DNA of 64,000 bases from Candidatus Stahliibacteriota bacterium (GTDB taxonomy: Bacteria; Hydrothermota; Tepidihabitantia; SM23-42): NCBI GenBank assembly GCA_030609135.1, contig JAUWCU010000003.1:55-64054 (forward strand). The letters run 5' to 3'. Of this stretch, positions 8,170-55,270 are shown piece after piece. The notes under the pieces were generated by a model, which was not told where the DNA came from, ran no database searches, and saw only the letters and a program-made list of their open reading frames with translations. The position numbers and the translations under genes were made by a program. Numbering within the stretch: position 1 is the first letter of the stretch; each line of letters begins with the position of its first letter.

Positions 8170-8222
8170 TATGTAATTCTATATACATTTAGTTAAATTT
8201 CAAGGGTTATTTATCCGCACTT

Positions 8223-8440
8223 TGTAGTTGCTCGATTCATCGAGCATTGCCTGATAAATCAGGGGACTACATTATGCCTGATTCAGCGTGGGCTTGAGCG
8301 TGGAAAGTGTAGTTGCTCGATTTGCCCATACTTTGTAGTTGCCCAATTTATTGGGCTTATGGCCATGTTCATGTCCGATAAATCCCGCAATTCTATTTAT
8401 AGAATTATAATACGAAGCGGGATAAATCGGAGAACTACTC
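8223..8440. repeat. cluster of REP-like palindromic elements: three TGTAGTTG-hairpin units plus one GATAAATCCCGC...GCGGGATAAATC unit
   Basis: 8223-8271 reads TGTAGTTG[CTCGATTCATCGAG]CATTG[CCTGATAAATCAGG]GGACTACA. There are further GTAGTTG hairpins at 8308 and 8334, and an A-type element at 8376-8430. Related copies occur at 2530, 32213, 36515 and 36815. Confidence 0.7.
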
Positions 8441-16181: not shown

Positions 16182-16445
16182 TCAAGATTGTAGTGGTCGG
16201 ATTCATCCGACATTAATAAAAATGTGCAATAAATTGCACCGCTACAATTATTAATTGTACAACCATCTGAATATTGACATCTGTACTTTTTAATTTGTTC
16301 AAAGATAAACCCCGTAGGACATTTGCTGTCCAACGGGGTAAAGCCTTCTCCACGGTTCAAATTAGATACAAAAGCTTTTTGCTTTAGCAATAGCTGTTCT
16401 ATTTTATACATATCACCGCGGAGAAGACTTTACCATTATCTCTAT

Positions 16446-29472: not shown

Positions 29473-29638
29473 GCCCAGATTATATGGAAAAATCCCTCAA
29501 TGTAAAGTATATTCATAAATCTGACATGTTGTAGTCCTGACAGGCATTTGCAGAGTAAACTCTGCCACTACAGAATGTGCGAAATATCACTGTCCCGCTA
29601 TGCGGGATCTTCGATTTTCCTATAGTGTATGCTAATAT

Positions 29639-29690
29639 GATAAATCCCGCAATTCAATTTATAGAATTACAATACGAAGCGGGATAAATA
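29639..29690. repeat. A-type palindromic element GATAAATCCCGC-[AATTCAATTTATAGAATT]-ACGAAGCGGGATAAAT
   Basis: Copies at 2558-2653 (a tandem pair), 8376-8430, 32245-32294 and 36748-36797 (reverse). Flanked here by a TGTAGTCC...CCACTACA unit (29531-29575) and a cruciform GGAGTGCA...TGCACTCC unit (29703-29750). Confidence 0.7.
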
Positions 29691-29811
29691 GGGCGGAGAG
29701 AGTAGATGGAGTGCAACGGCTTGCCGTTGCATGCAGTAGCAAGCTACTGCACTCCGTAGCAAAATCAAGGGATAAGGGATAAAGATGTGTCCAAGGTTTC
29801 TTAATTAAAAG

Positions 29812-32137: not shown

Positions 32138-32405
32138 TCGAACAATAATGATTTTATACTTCGAGCGACCATGAGTTTTACGAATGAGAGTCGAGAATCG
32201 AGCGTTAATAATTGTAGTTGTCCAATTTATTGGACAAAACCTGATAAATCCCGCAATCCTATTCATAACATCATAACACGAAGCGGGATAAATCACCTGT
32301 CTGCGTGCGATGCACAGGCAGGCCTGTCTACCTCAGGCAGAGGCGACTCGAACAATAATGATTTTATACTTCGAGCGACCATGAGCTTTACGAATGAGAG
32401 TCGAT
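32138..32405. mobile_element. composite TGTAGT-type MITE (about 134 bp, C+A+B modules) flanked by 59-bp near-perfect direct repeats
   Basis: The direct repeats are 32138-32196 and 32347-32405 (tcgaacaataatgattttatacttcgagcgaccatgag(t/c)tttacgaatgagagtcga). The core at 32213-32346 starts TGTAGTTGTCCAATTTATTGGAC and ends GGCAGAGGCGAC. The 78-aa track ORF MSFTNESR...MSFTNESR is an artefact of this duplication. Confidence 0.6.
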
Positions 32406-34026: not shown

Positions 34027-34220
34027 CTGCAAATACGTCTTCAACAATTCAACAGGACTATTGTCATTACGAGTGTAGTCGAGAACCCTCAACATGATTA
34101 TTGTTCCTCTCACCTTGTTCGAGACAGGCGAGCGAAGTTGAGAACTTCCGCAATATGGGTGATGGCCCTAGATAAAAATGTCATTGCGAAGGCGTAGCCT
34201 GAAGCAATCTCACCTCCTTT

Positions 34221-34324
34221 TGTCAATCAAGCGCGTGAGGGCATAGTATTTGTAGTGGTCGAGTTTACTCGACAAACATCCCTGCACGCTACGGTATTTG
34301 TGCAGAGCAAGCTCTGCCACTACA
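34221..34324. repeat. D-type REP element: TGTAGTGG-[TCGAGTTTACTCGA]-CAAACATCCC-[TGCACGCTACGGTATTTGTGCA]-GAGCAAGCTCTGCCACTACA with a conserved 30-bp upstream arm
   Basis: Near-identical copies at 36388-36478 and 36961-37062. A partial inverted composite lies at 39048-39180. The perfect 8-bp termini are TGTAGTGG / CCACTACA. Confidence 0.75.
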
Positions 34325-36387: not shown

Positions 36388-37064
36388 TAGTATTCGTAGT
36401 GGTCGAGTTCACTCGACAAACATCCTTGCACGCCACGGTATTTGTGCAGAGCAAGCTCTGCCACTACATGTGTTCTTGATTCGTTCCAGTATCCAACCCA
36501 AACCCTTTTTCCATACTCACAGTTATAGTCGCTCGATTCATCGAGCCAATCTAATGGAGCGTCTGATAAATCAGACAACTACAAAGATTAATCAAATTGT
36601 TACATCATATCATTGTAGTTGCTCGATTCATCGAGCCAATTTACGCGGAAAGCCCCTCAGACTAGCATAATTACTGTTTCTCTCACCTTGTTCGAGACAG
36701 GCGAGCGAAGTCGAGAACCACCCTTTGCATTTTTCGCCGCCCAATTCATCCCGCTTCGTATTGTAATTCTATAAATAGAATTGCGGGATTTATCGGGCCA
36801 ATTTACGCGGAAGTATGTAGTCGCTCGATTCATCGAGCCAATCTAATGGAGCGTCTGATAAATCAGACAACTACAGCGCAGCGTATCTTCAGTGAAACGT
36901 GTCTCCAGCGTAGCGTGTCTTCAACAGAGTGTGTTCTCCATTTCTCCCATACTCCTTTTGTCGATCAAACGCGTGAGGGCATAGTATTTGTAGTGGTCGA
37001 GTTTACTCGACAAACATCCCTGCACGCTACGGTATTTGTGCAGAGCAAGCTCTGCCACTACATG
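36388..37064. repeat. BIME-like array of at least seven REP-type units in a 790-bp intergenic region
   Basis: Order: D (36388-36478), TATAGTCG-type C (36515-36600), C (36610-36650), the ctctcaccttgttcgagacaggcgagcgaagtcgagaacc unit (36676-36720, also at 34085-34140), A reversed (36748-36797), C (36815-36885), D (36961-37062). Four track ORFs here are spurious. Confidence 0.75.
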
Positions 37065-37165: not shown

Positions 37166-39016
37166 ATGACACTAATAATATTGTTTTTAGCAGGTCAATC
37201 ATTTTTTAACATTGAGAACAAGCAAGTATTCTATCCTGAACCAGTTAGAGCTGAATCAACGCACTCGTATGATGTACTGCACTATTTCATAGATCTGAAC
37301 CTTCCAATGACTTCCCGCTATCTTGAAGGCGCGGTTACGATTTCAGCCCGGAGTAATCAGGATAATTTGACGATTCTTGACCTCCACCTTTTAGGCTTGA
37401 GTGTTGATTCTTTAAAAGTCGATGGAGTTACTGCATCTTACTCCCACAATTACGAGACTTTATATGTGAATCTGCCTCAAGTCTATAATCAGGGTGATTC
37501 CTTTGATATAATGGTGGGATATAGTGGCACGGCTTCGGGCAGCATGGGTTATCTCAGGTATACCAGCACCCACCCCATTTCATATACCCTGGGTTGTCCA
37601 TTCTGCACAAGAAGATGGCTACCCTGTTATGACCGATTATGGGACAAGGCTGATTATGGTGTCGAGTTTTTTATAACTGTACCGGATTCCTATTATGTCT
37701 GCGCTACCGGAGAATTAATTGACGTAGATACTACGGCAGGTTATGCAACATTCAATTGGAAACATAATTATCCTATCGCTCCTTATCTTATTCACTTTGC
37801 TTCAAGCATCTTTACCACATATTCAGATTGGTATTATCCAGCGGCAGGAGATAGCATTGAGATTAAAAATCATTTCTGGCCTGAGGATATGATTTATGCC
37901 CCGACCGCGTTTCAATATACCACAGACATGATGTCTTATTATGATTCGCTTTATGGCGCTTATCCTTTTGAACGCTATGGTATGGTAATACTTCAGCCAT
38001 TCTATTATGCGGGCATGGAACATCAAACCATGAGCTCGATATATCGTACAGGTTTTGTTGGTAATGATTATTACCTGATGGCGCATGAGATGTCGCATAT
38101 GTGGTGGGGTGATATGGTAACGTGTTTTGGTTGGCAGAATGTCTGGCTGAACGAGGGTTTTGCAACATATTCTGATGCCCTGTACCGTGAACACCATGTT
38201 AATCATCAGCTTTTCATTAATACCATGATCTCCCGCCGCAATGCATACTTCAGCTCAGAAGCGTCGTTTCCACATCCGATCTATGACCCGCCGGCAAATC
38301 ATATTTTTAATTGGGGTCATTCTTATTGCAAGGGTTCATGGCTCTGTCATATGATCAGATATTTGTGCGGTGATGATAATACCTGGTTAAACCTGCTTGC
38401 CACATACCGTGATTCATTCGCATATCAAGATGCCTCAAGCGATGATTTGAACCGGATAATGGACCAGGTACTCGGAGGAAATTATGATTGGTTCTTTAAT
38501 GAATGGGTGTATGATCTTTACTATCCAATCTATGATATCGTGTGGGTAAAAATCTATGAATCGCCGAACTGGCGTTTGATTTTGGACATCACTCAAACTC
38601 AACCCATGGGCCCTTCGGTTTTTCATATGCCATTGCCAATCGGCGTAGATTTCTCAAGCGGTGATACAATATTAACGCTCGACATAAATCAATCCCCACA
38701 ACACTTTGAGTATGTATTGCTACAAGAGCCAATGGACATTATCGTTGATCCAGAAACCTGGGTAATTCAAAAAAATACTGTGACCCAGGGTATTGCAGAA
38801 TATGTTGCTCCCGGTATATTTATTGAGAACATCAACACGATCGGTCGGGCAATCGAGCTCAAGCTTACTCAACCCGGTTTAATTCGAATTTTTGATATTA
38901 CAGGCAGAAAGGTCTATGAAACACATGCTCAGGAGGTTAAATATCAACCTTCAAGCGCGGGTATCTACCACGTAATAATCGGTGACAAGAAACAGCGAGT
39001 AGTCGTTGTAAAATAA
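37166..39016 (+). CDS. M1-family zinc aminopeptidase with a C-terminal T9SS (Por) sorting domain
   Basis: HEMSHMWWG...NEGFATY is the gluzincin HExxH-x18-E motif. The C-terminus LIRIFDITGRKVYE...AGIYHVIIGDKKQRVVVVK matches the T9SS CTD pattern. Confidence 0.75.
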   Translation: MTLIILFLAGQSFFNIENKQVFYPEPVRAESTHSYDVLHYFIDLNLPMTSRYLEGAVTISARSNQDNLTILDLHLLGLSVDSLKVDGVTASYSHNYETLYVNLPQVYNQGDSFDIMVGYSGTASGSMGYLRYTSTHPISYTLGCPFCTRRWLPCYDRLWDKADYGVEFFITVPDSYYVCATGELIDVDTTAGYATFNWKHNYPIAPYLIHFASSIFTTYSDWYYPAAGDSIEIKNHFWPEDMIYAPTAFQYTTDMMSYYDSLYGAYPFERYGMVILQPFYYAGMEHQTMSSIYRTGFVGNDYYLMAHEMSHMWWGDMVTCFGWQNVWLNEGFATYSDALYREHHVNHQLFINTMISRRNAYFSSEASFPHPIYDPPANHIFNWGHSYCKGSWLCHMIRYLCGDDNTWLNLLATYRDSFAYQDASSDDLNRIMDQVLGGNYDWFFNEWVYDLYYPIYDIVWVKIYESPNWRLILDITQTQPMGPSVFHMPLPIGVDFSSGDTILTLDINQSPQHFEYVLLQEPMDIIVDPETWVIQKNTVTQGIAEYVAPGIFIENINTIGRAIELKLTQPGLIRIFDITGRKVYETHAQEVKYQPSSAGIYHVIIGDKKQRVVVVK

Positions 39017-39047
39017 GTCTGCTGTCATTGCGTAAGTATTTAATAAT

Positions 39048-39180
39048 TGTAGTGGTCGAGTTTACTCGACAAATATCCTTCACGCTGCTTTTGCCCAACT
39101 GTAGTTGCCTCTGCCTGAGGCAGACAGGCCTGCCTGTGCGTCGCACGCAGACAGGTGATTTATCAGGCTGCATCAATCCG
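39048..39180. repeat. inverted composite REP element (partial D unit, B hairpin and the A-junction GTGATTTATCAGG)
   Basis: Reverse complement of the 32225-32345 architecture. The GCCTCTGCCTGAGGCAGACAGG hairpin equals B-type units at 2656-2683 and 32296-32346. Confidence 0.6.
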
Positions 39181-39382
39181 CCATCTTATGTCATTGTGAA
39201 GGCGAAGTCCGAAGCAATCTCCAAAAAAGAGATCGCTTCGTTCACACTCGCGATGACAGGAAAAAAATGTTACTGCGAGCGGAATCGAGAACCTTCAGCA
39301 GTAGTATAATATTGTTCTCTCCGTTGCTCCGATACTCCCTTTCACCGTTTCTCCCATTCTCCTGTTCTTGCCCGTTATCACG

Positions 39383-39410
39383 TTGACATATAGCCCTTTC
39401 TCGCTATAAT
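39383..39410 (+). promoter_or_regulatory. sigma70-type promoter TTGACA-16-TATAAT, 5 nt upstream of a GTG start
   Basis: TTGACA at 39383-39388, TATAAT at 39405-39410. Confidence 0.45.
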
Positions 39411-39415
39411 ATATA

Positions 39416-40618
39416 GTGTCTCAGCAACTAAATATCTTGGTCACCGGCGCCGCCGGCTTTATCGGCTGGAAAGTCTGCGAACTCCTCCTCACCAAACCAG
39501 AGCTAATTCCGAGTGACATAATGACCAATGACTCAATGACTGTTTCTGTTATTGGCATCGACAACCTCAACGACTACTACGACATCCGCCTCAAACAATG
39601 GCGTCTTGAGCAATTAAAGAAGTTAAATAGTCATTGCCAGGAACCTTCCTCTTCCGTCATTGCGAGGAATCCCGAGTTTGTCGAGGGAGACGAAGCAATC
39701 TCACCCAATCGATTCATGTTTCACAAACTCGACATCGAAGACTACGCATCTCTTAAGAAATTGTTCCAAAAATACTCTGTTCATTCAAAAAGTACCGCAC
39801 AAAGTGCTCATAACCGCCCCGACACTTTGAATAAAAGTGTGGGGGCCAAAACCGCATCTTTGATGCCAGAACCGCCGTTTACGGCAGTGATCAATCTCGC
39901 TGCTCGTGCTGGTGTTCGCTACAGTTTGGAAAACCCGTTTGTATATTATACGACAAATGTCATCGGTACTTTAAACCTTCTCGAACTGTGTCGTGAATTT
40001 GGTGTGAAAAAATTCATCCTTGCATCTACTTCATCACTATATGCCGGACAGAAAATGCCTTTTAAAGAGGAGTTACCGGTGAATGAACCCATATCGCCTT
40101 ACGCAGCATCAAAAAAGAGTGCTGAAGTTACCTGTTATACATATCACAATTTGTATGATATCGATGTGACGATTTTAAGGTATTTCACTGTGTATGGACC
40201 AGCATCCAGACCTGATATGAGTCCCTTGCGTTTCATATCCTGGGTATATCAGGAAAAACCTGTTATCATATATGGAGATGGTACCCAGTCACGAGATTTT
40301 ACCTATGTCGATGACATCGCCCGCGGCACAATAATGGCATTAAAACCTTTGGGTTTTGATATAATAAACCTTGGCTGTGATCAACCCCATGAATTGCTCG
40401 AATTTCTTCACATGATTGAGGAGAAGCTGGGCAAGAAAGCAAAGATTGTCAATGAACCCATGCATCCTGCAGACATGAAAGCAACCTGGGCAGATATCAC
40501 TAAAGCTAAGAAAATACTCGGCTGGCAGCCTTCAGTAAGATTGGAACAGGGGCTCGATACTGCGGTTGTTTGGTTCACAAAAAACCGTACCTGGCTTGCT
40601 GATATCAAGCTCTCTTGA
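39416..40618 (+). CDS. NAD-dependent nucleotide-sugar epimerase (UDP-glucuronate 4-epimerase / CapI-like SDR) with two lineage-specific insertions, one derived from a repeat element
   Basis: N-terminal ILVTGAAGFIG and the catalytic YAASK motif. Compared with the CapI-like core there are extra segments SSVIARNPEFVEGDEAIS and VHSKSTAQSAHNRPDTLNKSVGAKTASLMPEPP. The start is uncertain (GTG at 39416, or the TTG three codons downstream). Confidence 0.7.
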   Translation: MSQQLNILVTGAAGFIGWKVCELLLTKPELIPSDIMTNDSMTVSVIGIDNLNDYYDIRLKQWRLEQLKKLNSHCQEPSSSVIARNPEFVEGDEAISPNRFMFHKLDIEDYASLKKLFQKYSVHSKSTAQSAHNRPDTLNKSVGAKTASLMPEPPFTAVINLAARAGVRYSLENPFVYYTTNVIGTLNLLELCREFGVKKFILASTSSLYAGQKMPFKEELPVNEPISPYAASKKSAEVTCYTYHNLYDIDVTILRYFTVYGPASRPDMSPLRFISWVYQEKPVIIYGDGTQSRDFTYVDDIARGTIMALKPLGFDIINLGCDQPHELLEFLHMIEEKLGKKAKIVNEPMHPADMKATWADITKAKKILGWQPSVRLEQGLDTAVVWFTKNRTWLADIKLS

Positions 40619-42687: not shown

Positions 42688-42758
42688 TATAATATGAATT
42701 TTGATACCACGAAGTTTTGGGGAAAATTAAATTATTACTAAAAAGACAAGGAGGAAAT

Positions 42759-43733
42759 ATGAAAAGAGTGGTCATTGGGATATGTGCAATAGTGATAGGG
42801 TTTATGCCCTTGTCCATCTATGGTTCTGAAATTGCAACTGTAACTTTGGAAACCTGGATGAATGCTTCCCAGGGTTTTGAACCAAACCTTGGTCAGATTG
42901 GCGATTTTGAAGGGAATGTGGTTAATAATATCTTGTGCGCTTTCAAGGGTAATGGACTTGGTATATTCATTAATGAAAAAGGGGTAAGTTATGTTATTTA
43001 TCAAGCGGAAAAAATCTTAAGAGATGAGTCCCAGAGAATTGATTTAAGAGAACCTGAAAAAAATCTTATCCACTATGCAAGGATTGATGTGGAGCTTGTG
43101 AATTCCAATTTTGAAAAGTCAAAAATCGTTTATGAAGATGAGCTACCCGGATATGCGCATTATTATTTGCCACAATGTCCTGATGGTATTCTTTATGTGA
43201 AAAGTTTCAGAAAGGTGCGGATTAAAGAGATATATCCGGGCGTTGACTGGATATGGAAATATGAAGATGGACGGTTGCATCATGAATTTGAGGTCAAACC
43301 TGCGTCTGATGTTTCAAAGATAAAGATGAAGGTTAAATGGGCTGATGTTGAGATAAGCGAAAATGGTAGAAAACTTATATATTCTACGCCACTTGGTAAG
43401 ATAAAAGATGGAAATATACTTGGTTATGAAAATCCGAAATCCAAAATCCGAAATCCGAGACCGATTGATATTTCTTATATAAAAAATGAAGATGGGATAA
43501 TTTCCTTTGAAATAAAGAATTATTCCGGTAAAAATCCTCTAATTATTGACCCACCCCTTGCACTATTATGGGGGACATATTACGGAGGCAATGATCCTGA
43601 TCGTGGCTATTCAATTACAACCGATAATTCAGGTAATATTTTTGTAACTGGGACCACTTATTCAACAGAATTTTCCCACACAAGACCCCGGTGGTGGTGC
43701 TTATTATCAAGGTACAAAAGCAGGATATTTTGA
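42759..43733 (+). CDS. SBBP-repeat beta-propeller surface protein, N-terminal part (signal peptide, unique 270-aa domain and the first repeat); reading frame breaks at the T4 run at 43677-43680
   Basis: Start at the internal Met [22 protein letters not shown], preceded by GGAGG. After TTYSTEF the frame yields SHTRPRWWC..., whereas the +1 frame continues the repeat consensus [14 protein letters not shown]. Deleting one T restores a single 770-aa ORF. Confidence 0.6.
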
Positions 43734-44800
43734 TGTATTTGTTTTAAAGTTTACAAATACAGGGGTTCGGCTTTGGGCGACATATTACGGAGGAAATGAC
43801 AGAGATGGGGGCGCTTCAATTATAACTGACAATTCAGGTAATGTTTTTGTAGGTGGAACCACCTATTCAACAGATTTTGCCACACAGGACCCTGGCGGTG
43901 GTGCTTATTATCAAGGAACATTTGCAGGTGTTGGTGATGCATTTATTTTGAAGTTTACAAATGTTGGTATTCGCCTCTGGGCAACATATTACGGCGGAAA
44001 TGATAGTGATATGGTGTGTTCGATTACCACTGATAATTCAGGTAATGTTTTTATAACTGGGTGGACTCTTTCAACAGATTTTCCCATACAGGACCCTGGC
44101 GGTGGTGCCTATTATCAGGGAGCAAATGCAGGTTATAGAGATGCATTTATTTTGAAGTTTACAAATACGGGTGTTCGTCAATGGGCAACGTATTACGGAG
44201 GAAATGCTGGTGATTGGTGCAATTCAATTACAGCGGATAGTTCAGGTAATGTTTTTATAGCCGGATACACCTATTCAACAAATTTCCCCACATATGACCC
44301 CGGGGGAGGTGCTTATTATCAGGAAACACTTGGAGGTGTTCATGATGCATTTATTTTGAAGTTTACAAATACCGGTGTTCGGCAAAGGGCGACATATTAC
44401 GGCGGAAATAATGAGGATATGTGTAATTCAGTTACAACTGATGCTTCAGGTAATATTTTTGTGACTGGATACACTTTTTCACCAGATTTTCCCACATATG
44501 ACCCCGGGGGAGGTGCTTATTATCAGGGAGCACTTGCAGGCGGATATGATGCATTTGTCTTGAAGTTTACAAATAGCGGTATTCGCCAATGGGCAACGTA
44601 TTACGGAGGAAATGATGTGGATTGTGGCTTTTCAATTAAAACCGATAATTCAGGTAATGTTTTTGTAACTGGACTAACTGTTTCAACAAATTTCCCAACA
44701 CAGGACCCTGGCGGTGGTGCTTATTATCAGGGGACACATGCAGGTGTTGGTGATGTATTTCTTTTGAAGTTTGAAACTTCACTGGGAATTGTAGAGGAAA
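43560..44800 (+). repeat. intragenic tandem DNA repeats (144-bp period, about 8 copies, high nucleotide identity) encoding the SBBP blades
   Basis: Recurrent strings include gcaacatattacggcggaaatga, ggtgcttattatcagg and gcatttattttgaagtttacaaata. Confidence 0.7.
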
Positions 44801-45069
44801 ATACTAAAAAGAATGAGCCTTCGGTTCTAATTATTTCTTCTATCTTTATCAACAGAATACGAATAGACCTTTCATTATCTTCTAAAAAACCCATGGCTCT
44901 TATCCTTTATAATTTATTGGGGCAGAAAATCTTTTCAAGGTCTTATCCTGAAACTAAGTCTCTTATTATAAGAGGCAGAGAGATTGAAGAATTGAGTAAA
45001 GGAATATATTTCTTATCTGTCTATTCAGGAAAAAAAGAGATTGGCAGGGTTAAGCTGATAAAGAGATAA
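43948..45069 (+). CDS. SBBP-repeat beta-propeller protein, C-terminal part (about 7 x 48-aa repeats plus a T9SS C-terminal sorting domain); the frame is open upstream to about 43680
   Basis: Repeats follow [68 protein letters not shown]. The C-terminus ...[23 protein letters not shown] is a typical T9SS CTD. Confidence 0.65.
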
Positions 45070-53839: not shown

Positions 53840-55270
53840 ATGACCTATAATACTGATGCAATACATTCATCATTGATTCAAAAACTTTCAACTATATTTA
53901 ATCGTAGCAATCAGGGTGGGATTTTAGTTACTATGCTACTTATTTTGATATTGAGTCTAGAAGTCCTAACGGTGGTATTCTTTGCTTATTATGGATTTTA
54001 CGTTATTATTTCGTTACTACTTATTTTTCTGTTTCTTTTTACCGCATTTGCAATGGAGAAATCATACTATTTATTTACTGCATATTTCCTTATTCTTCCA
54101 GAGAAATTTTACAGTATTTTTTTTCCAGGTGTACCTATTACCTTTCACTGGGTAATTGGCTATCTTTTATTTCTTTTATTATTATTTTATTGGATTATCT
54201 ACGTATTGAAAAACTCTGTACAATTTTCATTTAAAGCTACAGATAAAATGTTGATAGTTTTTTTTATAGCAATTGCTGTTGCATTAGTGTCTGGGGTTCT
54301 AAGAAAGCACCAATTCTCGTTTATTCGATTAGAAATTATCGCTCTATCACTATATTTAGCCTATTTTATGGTCCTATATTCACCCTTGAAAAATAATCCA
54401 AAGCGGTTCTTTGATTTTGTAACATTGTGTTCAGTTATAATAGCATTTCAATTTTTGGATTCACTTTTTAAATTCGGAGGGAGTATTTTCTTGGTGCGTG
54501 TAGTTTCTATGCATATTCACGTGGCATTGCTTGCGATTTCTTATATTTGCATTACGTTAGTCTACTCAATGAATAGGATTAGAAGAATAATTATGGGATT
54601 GCTACTACCTCTTATATTCGCGAGTGTTATAATATCACAGCAACGAGCATTGTGGGGTGCTTCCTTGGTTATATGTGTGTTGGTTTTGTTAATATACATT
54701 TATCACAAACGTCATAAAATGAGAATTATTTTAATAACAATTGGTGGATCTATTGCTTTTGTGGTTTTGTCTTTTCTTATTATCAATTATTTAACAGCAG
54801 GTAGTTTCTATAATACTATAATTTCAAGGGGTCGTGTTCTATTGAATATTGAAGCAACCTTATCCGACGCATCATATATAATTCGAACAAATGAAATAGC
54901 TGAAGCGATCCAGACTGTAAAAGGTGATTTTCTTTTAGGCAAAGGAATTGGAGCTTCAACAATTTCAAGATGGCGTTTGATGAACCATGCCACCGTGGAT
55001 AATAGCTATGCTTACATCTATTGGAAAATGGGAATCTTAGGCTTGATAGGGTTTGTTGGTTTCTATATTGTTTTCTTTGTGAGGGGATTAAAATTACTTA
55101 GGTTACCAATAACCACCGATGAACGGATATTCACGATTGCCACGCTTTTAAATTTTGTCGGTCTGTTCATTGTTGGACTGACAAATGTGTGCATTGTGCA
55201 TTATAGATTTATACTCATTTGGGCTGCCAGTATTGGGTTTATAGAGTTTATTATAAGAAAATATGATTGA
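53840..55270 (+). CDS. wzy: O-antigen/EPS polymerase (Wzy / O-antigen ligase family) membrane protein
   Basis: 476 aa with about 11 TM helices and a large periplasmic loop near the C-terminus. The gene is very AT-rich. Confidence 0.55.
   Translation: MTYNTDAIHSSLIQKLSTIFNRSNQGGILVTMLLILILSLEVLTVVFFAYYGFYVIISLLLIFLFLFTAFAMEKSYYLFTAYFLILPEKFYSIFFPGVPITFHWVIGYLLFLLLLFYWIIYVLKNSVQFSFKATDKMLIVFFIAIAVALVSGVLRKHQFSFIRLEIIALSLYLAYFMVLYSPLKNNPKRFFDFVTLCSVIIAFQFLDSLFKFGGSIFLVRVVSMHIHVALLAISYICITLVYSMNRIRRIIMGLLLPLIFASVIISQQRALWGASLVICVLVLLIYIYHKRHKMRIILITIGGSIAFVVLSFLIINYLTAGSFYNTIISRGRVLLNIEATLSDASYIIRTNEIAEAIQTVKGDFLLGKGIGASTISRWRLMNHATVDNSYAYIYWKMGILGLIGFVGFYIVFFVRGLKLLRLPITTDERIFTIATLLNFVGLFIVGLTNVCIVHYRFILIWAASIGFIEFIIRKYD

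Follow-up and report, generated by a model that had tools for sequence, protein, structure and literature searches.

How does a short hairpin repeat come to lie inside the open reading frame (ORF) of an enzyme, and what becomes of the gene that carries it? The question is raised by a stretch of 64,000 nucleotides from a Candidatus Stahliibacteriota bacterium (contig JAUWCU010000003.1; the whole stretch is called the window here), in which a repeat unit stands within a predicted nucleotide-sugar epimerase gene at 39416-40618(+). A preliminary description of this DNA had placed the unit at 39656-39705 and read it as translated in the frame of the epimerase; sequence, coordinates and frame were all confirmed, and the three checks proposed there, on structures, ortholog alleles and other ORFs, turned out in support of its reading. 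It would seem very likely, with translation taken from the reading frame, that a hairpin repeat inserted in frame into the epimerase and now forms a translated, disordered loop, a tolerated passenger that recombination has reshuffled.

A repeat unit within the epimerase gene

The sequence GTCATTGCGAGGAATCCCGAGTTTGTCGAGGGAGACGAAGCAATCTCACC sits at 39656-39705 within the epimerase ORF and is read there as SSVIARNPEFVEGDEAIS. The full repeat unit occupies 39656-39702(+) and consists of a 5' arm GTCATTGCGA, a centre GGAATCCCGAGTTTGTCGAGGGAGAC and a 3' arm GAAGCAATCTC, with the translation VIARNPEFVEGDEAIS; owing to the length of the centre the reading frame differs between the two arms. Including its tag, the epimerase copy reads CCGTCATTGC. 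Directly before it, at 39630-39655(+), a lone 5' arm GTCATTGCCA, with one mismatch, is joined to a C/T-rich spacer (GTCATTGCCAGGAACCTTCCTCTTCC; translation HCQEPSSS, in frame 3 of the unit). The element in the epimerase is therefore best described as a composite at 39630-39702, in which the lone 5' arm and C/T spacer are followed by the full unit. The extent given earlier was right for the unit and missed the lone arm.

The closest relative of the epimerase copy in the window is an intergenic composite in the leader of queC at 24897-24957(-), made of a lone 5' arm with C/T spacer (24931-24957) and the full unit GTCATTGCGAGGAATGAAATGACGAAGCAATCTC (24897-24930). The epimerase unit and the copy at 24897-24930(-) are identical over 15 and 14 terminal bases, and the lone arm at 39630-39655 is collinear with 24931-24957(-), both composites being a half unit plus a full unit. 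When all intergenic DNA was compared by blastn with all long ORFs, the epimerase was the only long ORF in the window with a detectable match to the intergenic repeats, 24916-24957(-) aligning with 39630-39670 (44 nt, 86% identity, E = 1.8e-6). With up to one mismatch allowed for it, GTCATTGCGA has 15 matches in the window against 3.5 expected from shuffles; for GAAGCAATCTC the figures are 8 against 1.06. The joint pattern GTCATTGCGA-N5-35-AAGCAATC matches three times, once in the epimerase and twice between genes, against 0.00 expected in 100 shuffles. By both the motif counts and the blastn match, the similarity to the intergenic unit is beyond chance. Rfam 15 gave nothing at E <= 5 in 38900-40000, its sole hit in the window being a tRNA.

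The host gene is an intact ORF for a 400-residue extended short-chain dehydrogenase/reductase (SDR) resembling UDP-glucuronate 4-epimerase. It matches the Pfam families PF01370 (E = 1.4e-49) and PF16363, and among solved structures it is closest to an NAD-dependent epimerase of Klebsiella (5u4q) and the UDP-glucuronate 4-epimerase of B. cereus (6zl6); the named relatives in genome collections are metagenome-assembled genomes of candidate division WOR-3 and Ca. Stahlbacteria. The assembly collection has no entry for the exact protein of the window. In an alignment of 54 orthologs of about 62-86% identity (alignment A1), the TGAAGFIG NAD motif (T10-G17), the serine cluster (S204-S207) and Y229xxxK233 are invariant. 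With the Rossmann GxxGxxG, the catalytic S/T, the YxxxK and the SDR fold all present, the protein can be assigned as an extended SDR nucleotide-sugar 4-epimerase, its substrate being a prediction. The gene appears functional, the ORF being intact and the catalytic and NAD motifs invariant. As the GxxGxxG precedes all of the insertions in the sequence, a working enzyme must read through them.

At the protein level the insertion, here termed insertion 2, comprises L70-F100 (39623-39715(+)) in place of the YPNF of orthologs with an empty site, a net gain of 27 residues. The best Foldseek match of the epimerase is 6zl6 (probability 1.00), with a TM-score of 0.86 per target residue against 0.68 per query residue, as expected if about 80 query residues fall outside the fold. 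Compared with 5u4q there are about 14 extra residues after the first helix and about 61 between the helix following strand 2 and strand 4, and the latter are also extra relative to 6zl6. In the AlphaFold model (mean pLDDT 78, pTM 0.81) residues 77-96 and 124-143 have a pLDDT below 50 and no secondary structure, and insertion 2 connects helix 57-73 with strand 100-104, so that it is modelled as a disordered helix-to-strand surface loop with about 27 extra residues. That canonical epimerases lack the segment, as had been proposed, is borne out by these comparisons, which place the extra residues in loops. All three of the sites discussed below are helix-to-strand connections, and Rossmann folds place these at the sheet edge that is opposite the cofactor.

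Alleles at the three loops of the epimerase

Three sites vary in length across the ortholog alignment. Site 2 is empty in L004, L005, L007, L008, L017, L020 and L021, where CTAAAAAAA, TACCCCAACTTC and AAATTCCAC follow one another and encode QLKK, YPNF and KFH. Empty sites are common among orthologs of about 70-86% identity, and one of them, L020, is syntenic with the window, with the same M1 peptidase upstream. A form with one unit, GTCATTGCGAGGAGAGTAGCGACGAAGCAATCTC, translated in another frame as RHCEESSDEAIS, is found in L003, L015, L018, L019 and L023, and the long form in the window, L013 and L022. The comparison of ortholog alleles that had been proposed thus yields empty, one-unit and long forms of the same site. 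The allele of L022, which comes from another sample, is near-identical to that of the window across all three insertions, so the arrangement of the insertions is not an assembly artefact; the window and L022 have the gene in common and not the DNA upstream. At 1683-1684 L022 is without 46 bp that are present in the window (40225-40270), and the resulting break in the frame leaves two ORFs, of 290 and 94 residues; this is either a genuine inactivated variant or an assembly error.

Insertion 1 (39520-39541(+)) is a tandem array of the 8-mer AATGACTC, repeated 2.9 times according to Tandem Repeats Finder, in the loop that joins helix 15-26 to strand 42-49. At this site orthologs carry other 8-mer arrays or hairpin modules of the GEGKGEG type. 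Insertion 3 (39779-39877(+)) comprises the 33 residues V122-P154 between helix 110-119 and strand 157-160. Nested within it at 39817-39845(+) is a hairpin of 29 nt, the most stable one in the segment, CCCCGACACTTT-GAATA-AAAGTGTGGGGG, that is CCCC-G-ACACTTT GAATA AAAGTGT GGGGG, and the 102-nt segment as a whole folds at -17.8 kcal/mol (z = -3.6, none of 200 shuffles being as stable). The second extra segment of about 33 residues with a hairpin, noted at the outset, is therefore real.

Compared with the rest of the window, insertions 1 and 3 gave chance-level matches only, so a repeat origin cannot be demonstrated for them from the window alone. For insertion 3 such an origin comes instead from the orthologs. 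It resembles ortholog insertions that open with an intact unit, for example in P0011 (SSVIASEAKQSQKNTAQSAHNRRGATLTASSMPKPP) and L003, and at the same site orthologs read VIASEAKQS, a perfect GTCATTGCGAGCGAAGCGAAGCAATCTC, followed by a tail like that of the window, AQSAHNR...TAS.MP.PP. As this unit and the common tail occur together in orthologs, insertion 3 of the window is most likely a decayed repeat unit plus its tail. The nested hairpin resembles the central hairpin CCCCGCACCTTTTATAAAAGGTGCGGGG of intergenic units 5' of the epimerase in L004, L013 and L017. A repeat derivation of the second segment stands by way of the orthologs, with no match to the repeats within the window.

The states at the three sites combine freely on a tree of the C-terminal core of the protein. 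The three loops of the epimerase read as insertion hot spots and the alleles as mosaics, filled across the lineage by units of this family, by other hairpin modules and by short tandem repeats. A sister repeat is translated in P0099 (site 2) and P0110 (site 3) as SRHPEPGSG and SCHPEPRE, that is GTCATCCTGAG...; it begins with GTCAT as the unit does and has a different stem, so the tag may define a wider superfamily of repeats.

The steps by which the loop arose would be the following. The element would have entered the loop between the helix and strand 3 of the Rossmann domain, and the gene would have survived because the net length was a multiple of three and the frame stayed open. The element would then have been translated as about 27 extra disordered residues of a surface loop that faces away from where the cofactor binds, and filled and empty versions of the loop would have been exchanged among alleles by recombination. 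The element itself may move or be copied as a single-stranded hairpin, as is thought for repeats of the repetitive extragenic palindromic (REP) type, and gene conversion between copies may keep the arms uniform.

The epimerase adjoins surface-polysaccharide genes; its neighbour encodes a methyltransferase, and a Wzy-like protein is encoded at 53840. A perfect sigma-70 consensus at 39383-39416 (TTGACA, 16 nt, TATAAT; 12/12) ends 5 nt 5' of the GTG start, and both promoter and start are conserved in L003; this suggests that the epimerase mRNA would be leaderless or nearly so, beginning with GTG. A HepT/MNT toxin-antitoxin pair is present near the end of the window (61619-62453). Directly downstream of the epimerase in the relatives L013, L014, L020 and L023 there are HepT/MNT and RHH/PIN pairs, which marks a variable gene neighbourhood.

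The repeat family in the window and beyond

The two intergenic copies named in the preliminary description, at 34180-34214 and 39190-39222, are present as described. The first is a unit at 34180-34211(+), GTCATTGCGA-AGGCGTAGCCT-GAAGCAATCTC, with a clean inner hairpin (-5.4 kcal/mol, z = -2.4). The second belongs to two opposed units at 39190-39257, 39190-39221(+) and 39229-39257(-), which lie 5' of the epimerase promoter; the first of the two is conserved at the corresponding position in L003. When the intergenic DNA of the window was aligned with that of L003 and L020, no clean repeat boundary emerged. Two more diverged units lie within 25066-25175, at 25066-25099(-) and 25137-25175(+). A mechanically derived ORF at 24271-25101(-) reads openly through the repeat units at 24897-25101, and its QueC domain begins only at residue 72, so these units lie upstream of the real queC; a gene caller could wrongly stretch queC across them.

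Public collections, comprising viral contigs (L024-L143) and metagenome contigs, were scanned for the two arms separated by 5-35 bases. The 21 arm bases recur in at least 240 public stretches (at least 120 from viral and at least 120 from metagenome contigs), where by a rough estimate about one match to the two-arm pattern would be expected by chance in the viral collection. The counts that follow are among the matches listed. Among 154 viral-contig copies, GTCATTGCGA is preceded by T 120 times and by C 31 times, and the corresponding figures for 144 metagenome copies are 89 and 44; in the viral-contig copies the ten bases upstream of that T or C are pyrimidine-rich. The 95 distinct centres of the viral-contig copies have a mean terminal perfect stem of 2.43 bp, against 0.39 when shuffled, and in 34 of them the stem is at least 3 bp, against 1.9 expected. 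The bias at the tag and the complementary ends of the centres together define the plan of the unit: a (T/C)GTC tag, a 5-bp stem ATTGC/GCAAT, a conserved internal loop of GA and GAA, a variable, free inner hairpin and a CTC tail. Units are 26-56 nt long, with arms of 10-11 nt and centres of 5-35 nt, and four of their six reading frames are free of stops.

Of 155 viral-contig units, 9 follow a lone 5' arm and C/T spacer, and none shows the mirror layout, a full unit with a lone 3' arm. In the viral loci there are 401 5' arms, one mismatch being allowed, against 253 3' arms. This surplus hints at a directional copying step, which could explain why lone 5' arms are duplicated and lone 3' arms are not. 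One viral contig, L039, has a near-identical subfamily copy of the epimerase unit, complete with lone 5' arm and spacer. The DNA of the carriers ranges from 28 to 69% G+C, and they span WOR-3, Alpha- and Gammaproteobacteria, Cyanobacteria and phages; named cultured carriers include Methylocystis rosea, Halomonas, Aulosira, Tolypothrix and Methylosinus trichosporium OB3b, in which convergent genes flank the unit. Within the WOR-3/Ca. Stahlbacteria lineage the family is abundant between genes.

Copies flanked to either side by at least 60 codons without a stop amount to 30 of 158 in viral contigs and 23 of 144 in metagenome contigs, some of these open spans being artefacts of high G+C; of 20 unit-bearing ORFs searched against Pfam, 15 were real genes. 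In phage portal proteins the unit lies mostly between the portal and Mu-F domains, in phage large terminase subunits between the N- and C-terminal domains, and a phage capsid fusion also carries it in frame. In a metagenome UvrC it separates the two RNase-H-like domains and in a MurB it splits the match to the FAD-binding domain in two. Other metagenome genes with an in-frame unit encode a type I restriction enzyme R subunit (HsdR), an M50 peptidase, an NTPase, a PD-(D/E)XK nuclease and a PFL-like enzyme. Among related portal and terminase proteins, variable linkers carry the units at differing positions and in both orientations, which marks them as separate insertion events.

An exhaustive search with the 30-residue loop peptide gave four matches and no new host gene: two adhesin repeats (by chance), one tandem-repeat ORF and one 64-residue ORF of units. 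The 64-residue protein P0122 of the representative library consists wholly of translated units (VIARNPELAEGDEAI, LSLRGTLSLPKGTKQS, VIARNPELVEGDEAI, CHCEEP) and exemplifies intergenic repeat arrays called as genes.

A search for further ORFs with the unit had been proposed, together with the suggestion that repeats land routinely in coding sequence of this genome with the frame preserved. Within the 64 kb no ORF other than the epimerase was found to hold the unit, and this stretch does not show routine landing for the genome; for the family at large it does hold, through the in-frame copies in public viral and metagenome contigs. A companion insertion claimed in a phosphorylase gene was not found: the two ORFs of about 850 residues encode an esterase-like protein and an alanyl-tRNA synthetase, and there was no phosphorylase among twelve other ORFs.

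The window holds further repeats. A separate REP-like family with a GTAG tag (8209-8356, 16187-16212, 32205-32250, 34249-34274, 36393-37062 and 39046-39071; all copies intergenic) is built of TTGTAGTKG, a 6-bp stem and a loop of the TTYAT type, and its stem varies with compensating changes (GTCGAG/CTCGAC, GCTCGA/TCGAGC, GTCCAA/TTGGAC, GCAGAG/CTCTGC). A third family of about 50-70 nt, GATAAATCCCGCAAT..ATTTATAGAAT..CGAAGCGGGATAAATC, is an inverted pair flanking an A/T-rich centre, with five copies, all intergenic (2549-2663, 8368-8438, 29630-29700 and 32234-32304). A 204-nt repeat is present in six tandem copies, 76-81% identical, at 43569-44784. They cover the end of the ORF at 42717-43733 (DUF7948, beta-propeller repeat) and most of the ORF at 43948-45069; this is a repeat-domain surface protein, possibly divided between the two ORFs.

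Competing explanations and known repeat families

For the reading of the element as an in-frame insertion that is now a translated passenger, there is direct support for the identity of the repeat, its absence from orthologs, the open frame, the location in a loop, the mosaic distribution and the in-frame copies elsewhere. That the insertion is a tolerated passenger and not a functional module is what we infer. Several observations weigh against this reading. The translation of the insertion is a prediction from the frame, and the unit in the gene folds no better than shuffles (z = +0.3). Neither a target-site duplication nor a clean insertion boundary could be defined between filled and empty forms of site 2, and the closest filled and empty pair (L023 and L021, 90% identical) shows a diverged patch of 69 versus 27 nt in place of a clean insertion. 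Nothing relevant to a transposase or a REP-associated tyrosine transposase (RAYT) was found in ten small or neighbouring ORFs of the 64-kb window, which, for an incomplete genome, is too little to judge from. In addition, the long insertion (39623-39712, against 2208-2300 of L013) is identical at 85 of 90 nt (94%), where the core is identical at 545 of 735 (74%). A neutral passenger would not be expected to be so conserved, and the difference needs recent recombination or gene conversion, or selection on DNA or RNA; recent patch exchange, gene conversion from other copies or a DNA/RNA constraint could each produce it. The diverged patch, taken with the free combination of states at the three sites and the sharing of the gene and not its upstream DNA by L022, would indicate that the insertions are old and have been reshuffled among alleles by recombination.

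The high identity of the long insertion relative to the core would also be expected had the element been co-opted, with its DNA or mRNA hairpin slowing translation, marking a recombination hot spot that diversifies the loop or binding a factor, or with the loop having a role in the protein. Consistent with this, alleles with wide divergence elsewhere have identical arms, the three loops have been filled repeatedly in the lineage, and the gene adjoins surface-polysaccharide genes. On the other hand many orthologs have no insertion at site 2 at all, and what fills a given loop changes from allele to allele, the modules being unrelated to one another, so that no one peptide is required; disorder is predicted for the loop, the unit within the gene folds no better than its shuffles, and the identity is explained equally well by recent patch exchange or by gene conversion from other copies. 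We therefore consider co-option unlikely, although it is the strongest of the rivals. Less likely again is that the segment is never translated, through ribosome bypass, removal from the mRNA or, in a pseudogene, a frame left open by luck. Nothing in the sequence directly proves translation, and bypassed hairpin-rich inserts do exist, in T4 gene 60 and as the mitochondrial 'byps'. However, the insertions at three sites in about 90 orthologs are all in frame and stop-free, albeit in a sample biased to intact ORFs, the would-be take-off site has no stop codon, and Rfam gave no RNA family match, ribozymes and introns included. The length of the centre in gene-borne units also adjusts such that only open frames are used, and a frame of 400 codons with invariant catalytic residues would not be expected of a pseudogene.

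An ancestral origin of the loop, present at the root of the epimerase clade and lost in other members, with a likeness to the intergenic repeats due to chance or convergence, is the least credible of these explanations and has very little left to recommend it. It would account for the lack of a clean insertion boundary and for the spread of the one-unit form over many alleles, but the joint pattern, expected 0.00 times, is found in the gene and twice between genes, the match of 44 nt (E = 1.8e-6) is collinear, the 21 arm bases recur in the 240 or more public stretches, and the distant homologs L007 and P0106-P0120 and the solved structures are without the loop.

The preferred reading, an in-frame insertion tolerated as a loop, leaves one gene whose three tolerant loops have repeatedly taken up interchangeable modules, and the public scans suggest that a single fixed-arm element does the same in many bacteria and phages. 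More tentatively, and with the odds rather against so broad a claim, the unit, at 26-56 nt, may represent a hairpin mini-element not described before, one able to cross phyla and infect phages as well, which settles in frame in the loops and linkers of essential genes such as those for phage portal and terminase, UvrC and MurB. If so, it would be a general and ongoing source of new protein loops and linkers, and if it is still active some machinery must recognise the tag and the GA/GAA loop. In practice the fixed arms can serve as a tag by which loops derived from repeats are recognised in protein databases, the units mark insertion-tolerant positions in enzymes and phage proteins, and knowledge of them helps to avoid spurious 'hypothetical proteins' made of translated repeats, such as P0122.

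Several identities for the unit were considered and dropped: a kink-turn, the internal loop having no 3-nt bulge, an integron attC site, as its arms are unlike attC core sites, and a solo CRISPR repeat, its copies being irregularly spaced. No RNA family described in Rfam 15 scored above threshold for the repeat region. Miniature inverted-repeat transposable elements have terminal inverted repeats of 15-30 bp, whereas the arms of the unit are only partly complementary (5 bp), and no target-site duplication is seen at filled versus empty sites. With the RAYT-mobilised GTAG REPs and the mosaic bacterial interspersed elements (BIMEs) of E. coli the unit shares the habit of short hairpin modules that nest and combine between genes; it differs in having no GTAG tag, and the limited search of ten ORFs revealed no RAYT gene.

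The nearest described class is that of the CGTC-tagged REPs, which includes dRS3 of Neisseria and RPE-4 and RPE-6 of Rickettsia (Di Nocera et al. 2013, PMC3733652). In these families the stem runs uninterrupted for 8-9 bp and encloses 4-5 nt of loop, the tail is CCA, and copies occur in repair genes such as uvrA (PMC3733652). The unit likewise has an unpaired CGTC/TGTC tag at one end. The REP stems open with A-T and T-A, as does the stem ATTGC...GCAAT in all copies of the unit; in the public scans the stem bases are fixed by the search pattern, so only the window copies are independent evidence on this point. Both are mostly intergenic, often in opposed pairs and sometimes in genes, the unit in UvrC and the REPs in uvrA, and for neither is a dedicated transposase known. 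The REPs end in a short unpaired tail with the consensus CCA; the unit has a tail of different sequence, CTC in the window copies (CTCACC, CTCGCC and CTCCAA). In place of the 8-9-bp stem, however, the unit has five canonical pairs, GA facing GAA and a variable inner hairpin. It would thus resemble the (C/T)GTC-tagged REP class without fitting the stem and loop by which that class is defined. The REP survey and its supplements (PMC3733652) contain neither the sequence of the unit nor the hosts named above, and in the literature covered, which leaves subscription journals outside, no paper had the unit, its reverse complement or its typical translations, the only matches being unrelated primers.

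In-frame insertion of a repeat is itself a known kind of event; what appears to be undescribed is this family, its spread over phyla and phages, and the hot spot formed by the three loops. Intragenic REPs are known, many of them in repair genes (PMC10969869, PMC3733652). The best precedent is that of the Rickettsia palindromic elements (RPEs; Ogata et al. 2000, 2002), which, as summarised in PMC10969869 and PMC3733652, are selfish palindromic repeats lying in frame in unrelated functional genes, about 150 bp long, in ten families and reported as confined to Rickettsia. Like the RPEs as these summaries present them, the unit resides in frame in working genes where the fold tolerates extra peptide. 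It differs from them in its size (26-56 nt against about 100-150 bp) and in its WOR-3/Stahlbacteria host, with no sequence similarity to claim to the RPEs as there described, and also in its invariant arms of 10-11 nt and its occurrence in phages and several phyla, over a genomic G+C range of 28-69%. The epimerase would then show that the building of new protein loops by selfish hairpin repeats is not confined to Rickettsia and extends to an uncultured phylum.

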